Source of the DNA: Eledone cirrhosa
Lineage: Eukaryota
DNA: 64,000 bases
Assembly (NCBI GenBank): GCA_964016885.1
Contig: OZ024766.1
Location: forward strand, 12,276,001-12,340,000
Reading direction: 5' to 3'
Both the position numbers and the translations under genes were made by a program. This document shows positions 5,521 through 6,357 of this stretch, piece by piece (position 1 is the first letter of the stretch; each line of letters begins with the position of its first letter). Under the pieces are notes generated by a model. The model was not told where the DNA came from and did no database searches. It saw only the letters and a program-made list of their open reading frames with translations.

Positions 5521-5525
<5 letters not shown>

Positions 5526-6352
5526 TTTGATTTATTGATTTATTGATTTTTTATCTGAGTGTCCCGAATCTTCCAGATCGCAATTTTTCGGTCGTATGGT
5601 TGATTATAGACTTGTTCTATGTGTGACGGTATTTTAACGATAGTTATAGCTCTGATTTATCTAAATTATTGAGCTCTCTGCCGCTCATATCGAATTTTGT
5701 TTATCGTGAACTCGTGCGCCGATTTTTCGATACTCGATTATTCTACTATATTTAGCTCTAGACCTAGCTATTGACCAGTTAATTTTATTGTTCATTTTTT
5801 GTCGATTCTATTGAATGATGAATAGCTCCTGTTTATTTTAACATGTCTATTGAGCACTCTTATTCGATATGTGTATTTCCACATTTTCCCGAATATTTTT
5901 CGCGGATATAGAGGTTATCTCCCTTGCTGAATTCCATATGCGTATTTAGCCTGGGTTATGCCTTTTCATTCGTTTGGACAAAAGCTCGTTGAGGAAGTAA
6001 TTCCAGTCCGCTGGCATCTAGAAGTCTTATATATTTTTATGTGAGCTGATAGAGGACAGTTTAAGGATTTACAGAAACCCAAGAAGCTAGATTTACCATC
6101 TTTCTAGCGGGTCCGGGTATGCTTTTTACATTCATTTGATTTATTGATTTATTGATTTTTTATCTGAGTGTCCCGAATCTTCCAGATCGCAATTTTTCGG
6201 TCGTATGGTTGATTATAGACTTGTTCTATGTGTGACGGTATTTTAACGATAGTTATAGCTCTGATTTATTTAAATTATTGAGCCCTCTGCCGCTCATATC
6301 GAATTTTGTTTATCGTGAACTCGTGCGCCGATTTTTTGATACTCGATTATTC

Positions 6353-6357
<5 letters not shown>
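5521..6357 (+). mobile_element. Non-coding partial-tandem element, family G (609-bp period)
   Basis: 5521-5748 is repeated at 6130-6357; (TA)n on both sides; degenerate hammerhead-like motif at 5985-6117. Confidence 0.8.

Follow-up and report, generated by a model that had tools for sequence, protein, structure and literature searches.

This locus raises the question of how an insertion that encodes no protein could have been copied into its present position, and by whose enzyme. The window, meaning the whole stretch of 64,000 nucleotides that was analysed, contains at 5521-6357 a partial tandem without an open reading frame (ORF). The original prediction took it for a candidate non-autonomous partner of an autonomous, Neptune-type Penelope retrotransposon (PLE) in the same window. 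PLEs are the sister group of telomerase reverse transcriptase (RT).

The element is 837 bases long, has a GC content of 36% and is set in (TA)n. It consists of 1.37 copies of a 609-nt unit, so that its two ends form a direct repeat. The upstream copy at 5521-5746 (+ strand) is a 5'-truncated partial repeat, or pseudo-LTR (pLTR), and the downstream copy at 6130-6355 (+), delimited by repeat comparison, is the 3' end of the unit. Up to the last non-TA base the repeat measures 226 bp, with three mismatches (1.3%) at a period of 609. Identity extends through ambiguous TA bases as far as 5751/6360, and the 228 bp given earlier falls within this ambiguity. The upstream repeat is followed by a TA-like junction spacer at 5747-5754 (+), and the downstream copy enters (TA)n at the equivalent place. 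The target tracts, to which no strand is assigned, occupy 5487-5520 on the left (about 36 nt, counted from 5487) and 6356-6427 on the right (72 nt). Repeat comparison and a frame search thus bear out an ORF-less partial tandem with TA flanks. The longest stop-free frame inside it is 45 aa, and a Hydra protein profile found no ORF remnant in the element (best E 0.13). The sense strand of the unit folds more strongly than shuffled sequence (z -3.2, 0/20); the antisense strand has no excess structure (z -1.0, 3/20). No second copy exists within the 64-kb window, and plasmid and phage collections gave no match.

A partial tandem that forms a pLTR, has no terminal inverted repeats and is inserted in (TA)n has the features of a PLE-type insertion. 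Rolling-circle elements can also yield partial tandems without target-site duplications, and inside (TA)n such a duplication is unreadable at the element. A DNA-transposon derivative (MITE, Helitron or Replitron) would leave unexplained why terminal inverted repeats were not found at the element, and why a hammerhead and Hydra-type hairpins stand in it in PLE order. The three mismatches between the repeats speak against an assembly duplicate. Together with local duplication, these readings can be dismissed almost entirely. The element is a real PLE-type ORF-less insertion, and the signals that it carries are those of the Hydra clade, not of Neptune.

The first of these signals is a putative self-cleaving ribozyme motif. 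A degenerate hammerhead had been proposed at 5985-6117 (+), and the interval can indeed be folded as a type I hammerhead, with a 61-nt structured loop II and a 28-nt loop III. Its core consists of TTGAGGA+A at 5989-5996, A+GAA at 6074-6077 and C17 at 6113, so that cleavage is predicted after C6113. Stem II has 7 of 8 pairs, stem III 4 bp and stem I 4-5 bp. The hammerhead descriptor, which tolerated one core mismatch, was matched by 0 of 2000 dinucleotide-shuffled versions of the unit. The active fold lies 3.2 kcal/mol above the minimum free energy (MFE) and makes up about 0.1% of the predicted ensemble. At gathering score Rfam has no match in the window, and within 5400-6500 it returns microsatellite noise only. 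Projected onto the unit, the start of the upstream repeat falls 16 nt downstream of the position where cleavage is predicted.

In the single window copy the canonical core (C3-G8 or U3-A8) is replaced by U3 with G8. The original prediction proposed to check whether a consensus restores CTGAGGA. This criterion is incomplete, since a core restored to U3-A8 would be just as valid. PLEs with such cores are on record (PMC4209133), and a natural U3/G8 variant with insertions is mentioned in PMC7151607. A literature search for direct activity data on a U3.G8 core found none. The hammerhead loop (6011-6036) matches a PLE stub (63601-63625) over 26 nt, with an E-value of 0.54, and this match was not relied on.

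Several other hammerhead matches occur in the window. Eleven have a canonical core (21311, 21424, 22140, 22372, 23152, 40867, 45520, 59064, 59080, 62516 and 62552), and these sit mostly in head-to-head PLE-end pairs. The family directly left of the element, with copies at 5220-5490 (-) and 62975-63277 (-), has a U3-A8 covariant core in both copies. A further head-to-head pair, at 39555-39610 and 39799-40186, has a minimal hammerhead-like core by eye.

The second signal is a hairpin. The original prediction quoted short end motifs common to the element and the PLE. These are present in the PLE at 10547-10580 and 63603-63690; the element differs from them by two extra bases between TACTAT and TTAGCTC. 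The quoted pieces form the arms of a single hairpin and are separated by about 100 nt in the element, but by 8 nt in the PLE. In this hairpin an outer stem pairs GCTC with GAGC around an inner stem of variable sequence, the 3' side has a 2-nt bulge before GAGC, and ACTCT follows. The hairpin occurs twice in both the element and the PLE, once inside the terminal repeat (hairpin A) and once after the junction (hairpin B).

In the element, the first copy of hairpin A lies at 5649-5679 (+), with a GCTC/GAGC outer stem, a 7-bp inner stem with one G.T pair and a TT bulge. The second copy, at 6258-6288 (+), has the suffix CCTCT and lies 97 nt upstream of the last unique base. Both are matched by a model built from external hairpins, described below (E 2.1e-4 and 1.1e-4). 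Hairpin B, at 5755-5860 (+), combines a GCTC/GAGC outer stem, a TAGAC/GTCTA inner stem, a TT bulge and the suffix ACTCT. Its inner stem closes an 81-nt insert of two hairpins. The whole appears in the unconstrained MFE fold, and a 5-bp inner stem at this place arose in none of 20000 shuffles. In the PLE, hairpin B lies at 10560-10580 (+), between the end of the pLTR and the ATG, and is the top match of the external model (E 1.9e-5). Hairpin A of the PLE is found at 63604-63654 in the stub, with a 5-bp inner stem, and in a degraded version at 10473-10523. The A copies were located with a generalised descriptor after the architecture of B had been defined. The hammerhead is separated from hairpin A by 145 nt in the element versus 32 nt in the window PLE.

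The proposal of shared cis signals thus stands, on a duplicated and covarying hairpin that is stronger than what had been noted; TACTAT as a specific end does not. TAC or TACT ends 9 of 122 flanks of TA tracts, and the external Hydra ends lack TACTAT. Another TACTAT, at 13795, seems to belong to a PLE-end duplication that flanks a SINE-like insert rather than to an independent family. The suffix CC-CT at hairpin A and the context TACTAT..TTA before hairpin B are common to the element and the window PLE and occur in 0 of 17 external rows. They would point, mildly, to the family of the window PLE.

That PLE, at 10254-12976, is a rearranged copy. Its pLTR occupies 10254-10553 (+) and contains a decayed hammerhead (core 10401, H17 10441) besides hairpin A. 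The N-terminal part of the ORF follows at 10598-11290 (+), with RWR, DKT and one in-frame stop. The remainder of the ORF is inverted at 11283-12976 (-) and contains the RT core, a CxCX5C linker and a GIY-YIG endonuclease (EN), with two stops and one frameshift. These pieces were mapped by tblastn with two database relatives, whose matches place the inverted RT-EN part at 12976-11313, and Pfam assigned no family to any of four PLE pieces. The motifs are RLRWRA at residue 35 (RWK-type), DKT replacing DKG, and CNCRYPNAC, which corresponds to CxCX5C. In the linker-EN region neither a CX2-5CxxC linker nor a CCHH motif was found, and the core has one cysteine only. RWR, DKT and CxCX5C without CCHH are given as diagnostics of the Hydra clade in PMC8557442 (section 11). 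Since its motifs match these diagnostics, and since it has three in-frame stops in all, is frameshifted, carries an internal inversion near 11285 and lacks the EN C-terminus, the neighbouring PLE is, as far as its sequence tells, a dead Hydra-clade copy. It is neither the Neptune element nor the autonomous one of the original prediction.

This bears directly on the idea that an autonomous Neptune PLE in the window has the element as its dedicated non-autonomous partner, marked by a TACTAT end. In favour of such a partnership, the junction context of the element is closer to the window PLE than to external Hydra ends. Nevertheless, the PLE is of the wrong clade and dead, its family copies in the window differ from one another by 7-13% while the repeats of the element differ far less, and TAC ends are common and TACTAT is missing from external Hydra ends. 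An exclusive pair also fits poorly with related hairpins in other families of the window. Neither the coding nor the non-coding parts of the PLE align with the unit better than shuffles, 47 of 200 of which score as high. The partnership as originally drawn is very improbable. Because the element and the Hydra PLE have no linear homology, the partner family is not fixed.

The position of the hairpins relative to insertion ends can be followed in other copies of this PLE. A sister copy of its 3' UTR, at 13430-13581 (-), runs out into (AAAT)n(TA)n immediately ahead of hairpin A, which may be called the first end. A 28-nt PLE end at 13580-13607 (+) stops just before the position of hairpin B, where a SINE-like insertion follows. 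The stub at 63600-63690 (+), with hairpin A within it, ends in (TA)n before the position of hairpin B, the second end. Thus one copy ends before A and two end before B. The insertion at 13608 belongs to a dispersed family, which we take to be SINE-like, with copies at 13608-13796, 22566-22755, 33647-33834, 21073-21180 and 6550-6787. The copy at 13608 is flanked by the duplicated AT-rich PLE end.

Loci outside the window show that the hairpin recurs in Hydra PLEs of other organisms. An alignment of 40 proteins (40 of 122) recovered 16 external loci, L001-L016, from genome contigs. From their PLE and microsatellite content, these appear to be eukaryotic contigs inside bacterial metagenome-assembled records, likely host contamination. 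The element itself has short matches only to them (best E 0.014). The hairpin comparison covered Hydra PLE loci plus Naiad leaders. A strict form of the hairpin, whose suffix was set after a first look at these loci, has 11 matches in 71,334 bp, where 200 shuffles average 0.085 and never exceed 1. Among 22 external ends that bear a hammerhead, 9 have a hairpin within 300 nt downstream on the sense strand, none has one upstream and 2 have one on the antisense strand; these ends fall in about 11 families and are not independent. By eye, 10 of the 13 remaining ends enter (TA)n or a microsatellite first, 2 are broken by an inversion and 1 is mutated.

Hairpins also tend to stand at insertion ends. 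When 28 hairpins were queried, 27 were testable, and for 17 of these a sister copy ends in (TA)n or a microsatellite just upstream. Identity stops 3-9 nt upstream of the hairpin in 14 of the 17 sister copies. In the other three a substitution breaks identity at -12 or -13, and the tract begins shortly after. Thirteen aligned external hairpins have 85 of 86 cells paired and compensatory changes at 4 of 7 pairs, including a GCAC/GTGC outer stem, with scores that lean towards structure because the aligned rows were chosen for pairing. Run on the 64-kb window, a covariance model from these 13 hairpins ranks PLE hairpin B first and the two A copies of the element third and fourth, its E-values being rough. 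It matches just the 3' half of element hairpin B (E 0.0038), because it cannot span the insert.

The layout with A inside the repeat and B after the junction recurs in L002 and L009. In these two loci and in the window PLE, hairpin B is followed by an ATG at a distance of about 15-25 nt. In L009 a Hydra PLE insertion at 2385-2416 has a 5' end that begins at hairpin A directly after (TA)n, and the window stub at 63600 likewise begins at hairpin A. The hairpin may also stall RT. Published Hydra consensus sequences, inspected by eye, show the hairpin at the termini of Hydra-2_Amil, Hydra-1_Ajap (twice) and Hydra-2_Ajap, with inner stems that vary, and a looser form in Hydra-1_Crog. It was not seen by eye in Hydra-1_Amil or Hydra-1_Obim. 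The leaders of the octopus elements Naiad_Obim/Ovul contain a GCTC..TTGAGC pair without an inner stem.

Within the window, the general hairpin descriptor has 17 starts, against a mean of 3.6 and a maximum of 9 in 100 shuffles. Repeat ends were also defined without the motif: 119 TA-flanked ends were examined, giving 51 rows with a read-through sister copy. The hairpin lies 8-13 nt past the last G/C in 13 of these 51 rows. After 13 low-complexity rows were set aside and the rest collapsed into 12 families, hairpins are found at the read-through junctions of 6 families, compared with 42 of 5000 random positions. By the same descriptor the hairpin is absent at the junctions of the other six: four families at 2796, 22785, 61108 and 63301, a 65-bp minisatellite, and the partial tandem without an ORF at 36325-37590. 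At 22785 the two hairpin arms lie, by eye, on either side of a SINE-like insert. The descriptor was shaped on some window instances and on published Hydra ends; out of sample for it are only the external loci, the two A hairpins, the family at 2636 and positions 34506 and 22000. Of 13 window regions compared with the unit, 11 are not above shuffles. For one further family, F, 5 of 200 shuffles score as high, and for another, U, none does, yet its alignment is gappy and of low identity. A remote kinship of the unit with U is possible.

Other repeats in the window carry variants of the same features. A second ORF-less partial tandem lies at 45192-46023 (-), with a period of 630 and a repeat of about 200 bp. 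It has a canonical hammerhead at 45520 and an ACTC/GAGT hairpin at 45812, shows weak colinear similarity to the focal unit, and has its 5' end 58 nt downstream of the hammerhead cut site. Several of the families with canonical hammerheads bear ACTC/GAGT or GTTC/GAAC versions of the hairpin, and the tail of the 5220-5490 (-) family has a reduced GCT..AGCACC hairpin. A high-copy, short palindromic family in (TA)n (2529-2707, 13813-14009, 57863-58064, 58791-58912, 62712-62966 and 63716-63909) has an ACTC/GAGT hairpin 8-9 nt past its first end, with a second end about 70 nt later. The family at 34469-34600, 34918-35066 and 4918-5155 has a GCTC/GAGC hairpin at 34506, a TA-ended sister at 35061 and no clear hammerhead. 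In a palindromic end at 22500-22863 (-), the GCTC (22778) and TT-GAGC (about 22545) arms are split, by eye, by a SINE-like insertion. The third ORF-less partial tandem family (36325-37590, 14139-14461 and 59909-60970; period 719 at 36868/37587) contains CTGATGA, but the descriptors find neither a complete hammerhead nor, at its junction, the bulged hairpin. A different signal or ribozyme may serve this family. The remaining repeats include an apparently intact LINE at 46273-49731 and 49732-51633 (-), whose 1152-aa frame has endonuclease, RT and zf-RVT domains and whose 633-aa upstream frame has no Pfam match; a diverged LINE fragment at 31941-32505; and minisatellites of about 77 bp (6839-7679) and about 65 bp (35310-36310).

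The model favoured here, and probably the correct one, is that the element is a non-autonomous, retrozyme-like parasite. A Hydra PLE protein supplied in trans would bind the hairpin RNA, and cDNA synthesis would start just upstream. An insertion end lies just upstream of each hairpin. Since target-primed reverse transcription begins cDNA synthesis at such an end, the hairpin would position the cDNA start. In this process, an RNA template would first read through the end of the unit into hairpin B. Next, the RT-EN protein would bind the hairpin and nick (TA)n, and the nicked end would pair with the UA-rich spacer, which makes 5747-5754 the presumed start point. Reverse transcription would then begin internally, and for this reason the hairpin that is used would go uncopied at that end. 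Hairpins A and B would represent two possible starts, and the sequence between them the optional "tail" of PLEs. The length of 1.37 units requires that RT proceed round a circular or multimeric template, or that it jump. RT would have halted with 16 nt left to the hammerhead cut site and 4 nt left to the extended helix I.

With 5' ends 16 nt from the cut site here and 58 nt in the tandem at 45192-46023, a link to cleavage is suggestive only; the pLTR of the window PLE and L002 run through the hammerhead. A cut-to-cut monomer cannot arise from a locus with a single hammerhead, and this one is probably a daughter copy already spent. The mobiliser would not be the dead PLE at 10254-12976. It is likely an intact Hydra PLE elsewhere, given the low divergence of the element's repeats beside that among PLE copies.

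The same hairpins could instead act at the DNA level. The GIY-YIG endonuclease would then recognise the hairpin and cut the TA-like spacer, thereby setting the end. In most families the spacer is similar to the (TA)n target, tails are ascribed to EN-mediated resolution in PMC8557442, and the D. virilis tail is needed for EN recognition, as recounted in PMC11167929. Against this, inner stems change their sequence yet keep pairing, internal wobbles favour the sense strand (5 G.T versus 0 A.C, from 3 families), and the 81-nt structured insert in hairpin B is hard to square with a duplex site or a cruciform. The wobbles and the tolerated insert thus favour an RNA signal, and a purely DNA-level role is unlikely.

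A further possibility is that the element is a one-off internal deletion of another Hydra PLE and was never mobilised in its present form. It is a single copy in the window, and its order of hairpin B, hammerhead, hairpin A and end is that of a Hydra PLE minus the ORF. No remnant of coding sequence is found, although the ATG sits so close behind hairpin B in the Hydra PLEs compared. The structure of the whole unit on the sense strand, and the presence in the window of an ORF-less partial tandem of similar size (630 nt) with hammerhead and hairpin, also count against this reading, and it is, if anything, a little less likely than the DNA-level role. The mobilised parasite described above remains the preferred explanation.

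A broader model can be proposed more tentatively, and the odds are somewhat against its holding in full. The GCUC-stem-UU-GAGC-ACUCU hairpin may be a clade-wide recruitment and start signal of Hydra RT, and its duplication may explain the tail. Protein-free hammerhead circles might then parasitise PLEs without shared linear sequence, ACUC/GAGU, GCAC/GUGC and GUUC/GAAC versions could form a family-specific code, and the template cut by the hammerhead would be circularly permuted, its start signal close to the 5' end, so that a full copy would need circularisation or a jump.

How PLEs recognise their own RNA, and how pLTRs and optional tails originate, is largely open. The in vitro system of the Poseidon element PAc located start sites but, in the available portion of the paper, no conserved signal (PMC11167929). 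The dependence of animal retrozymes on PLEs rests on co-occurrence plus pLTR homology in frogs. A covarying hairpin of 21-35 nt, at a fixed distance from the ends of both coding and ORF-less elements, makes both questions testable. A hairpin model also helps to find and assign non-autonomous PLE families that homology searches miss.

Several known systems resemble the element in part. The non-LTR retrozymes of animals (PMC7229834; bioRxiv 10.64898/2026.07.22.740005) likewise have an ORF-less head-to-tail unit, a type I hammerhead, low GC and a structured RNA, and PLE dependence has already been proposed for such elements in both sources. Its 609-nt unit is inside the 51-972 bp range of the preprint (Li, Clavereau and Pollet) and longer than the 150-450 bp retrozyme repeats of Cervera and de la Pena 2020 (PMC7229834). 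With 1.37 units and one hammerhead, which has U3.G8, it falls short of the two complete motifs that the preprint requires of an "active" copy. It is classed as retrozyme-like because this copy lacks the canonical core and the second hammerhead. The preprint connects retrozymes with PLEs through pLTR homology in Xenopus, whereas the element is connected with them through a structured signal and has no linear homology.

The putatively non-autonomous Chlamys PLEs, such as MRC1, are ORF-less, have pLTRs and depend on PLEs (PMC8557442). They differ in that they occur in green algae, have 3' sequence in common with their partners and belong to a clade mostly without hammerheads. Neptune PLEs are similar in their C-terminal EN, hammerhead and microsatellite bias, but the protein of the neighbouring PLE lacks their CX2-5CxxC linker and CCHH motif.

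An example for an internal RT start and an AT-rich target is PAc of Anolis (Frangieh et al. 2024, PMC11167929). Two start sites bracket its tail, RNA downstream of the start is required, insertion does not need hammerhead cleavage, and the RT start site is not homologous to the target. PAc belongs to another clade and starts inside an AC-rich stem-loop within the ORF; the available portion of PMC11167929 reports no conserved cross-species motif for it.

The Hydra PLEs (Craig et al. 2021, PMC8557442) resemble the element in their (TA)n target, the pLTR layout and a hammerhead in which stem II is flanked on either side by one additional unpaired base. They also share the bulged hairpin, found by eye at the termini of 3 of 6 new Hydra consensuses and in a looser variant in a fourth. 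The element differs from them in having no RT-EN ORF, a longer spacing from hammerhead to hairpin A and the 81-nt insert in B. In the available main text of PMC8557442 the words "hairpin", "stem-loop" and "bulge" do not occur. No account of the hairpin turned up in a literature search, which reached few of the subscription papers or Repbase notes. Compared with these systems, the element itself is of a known kind, and the conserved, duplicated start hairpin is the new part.
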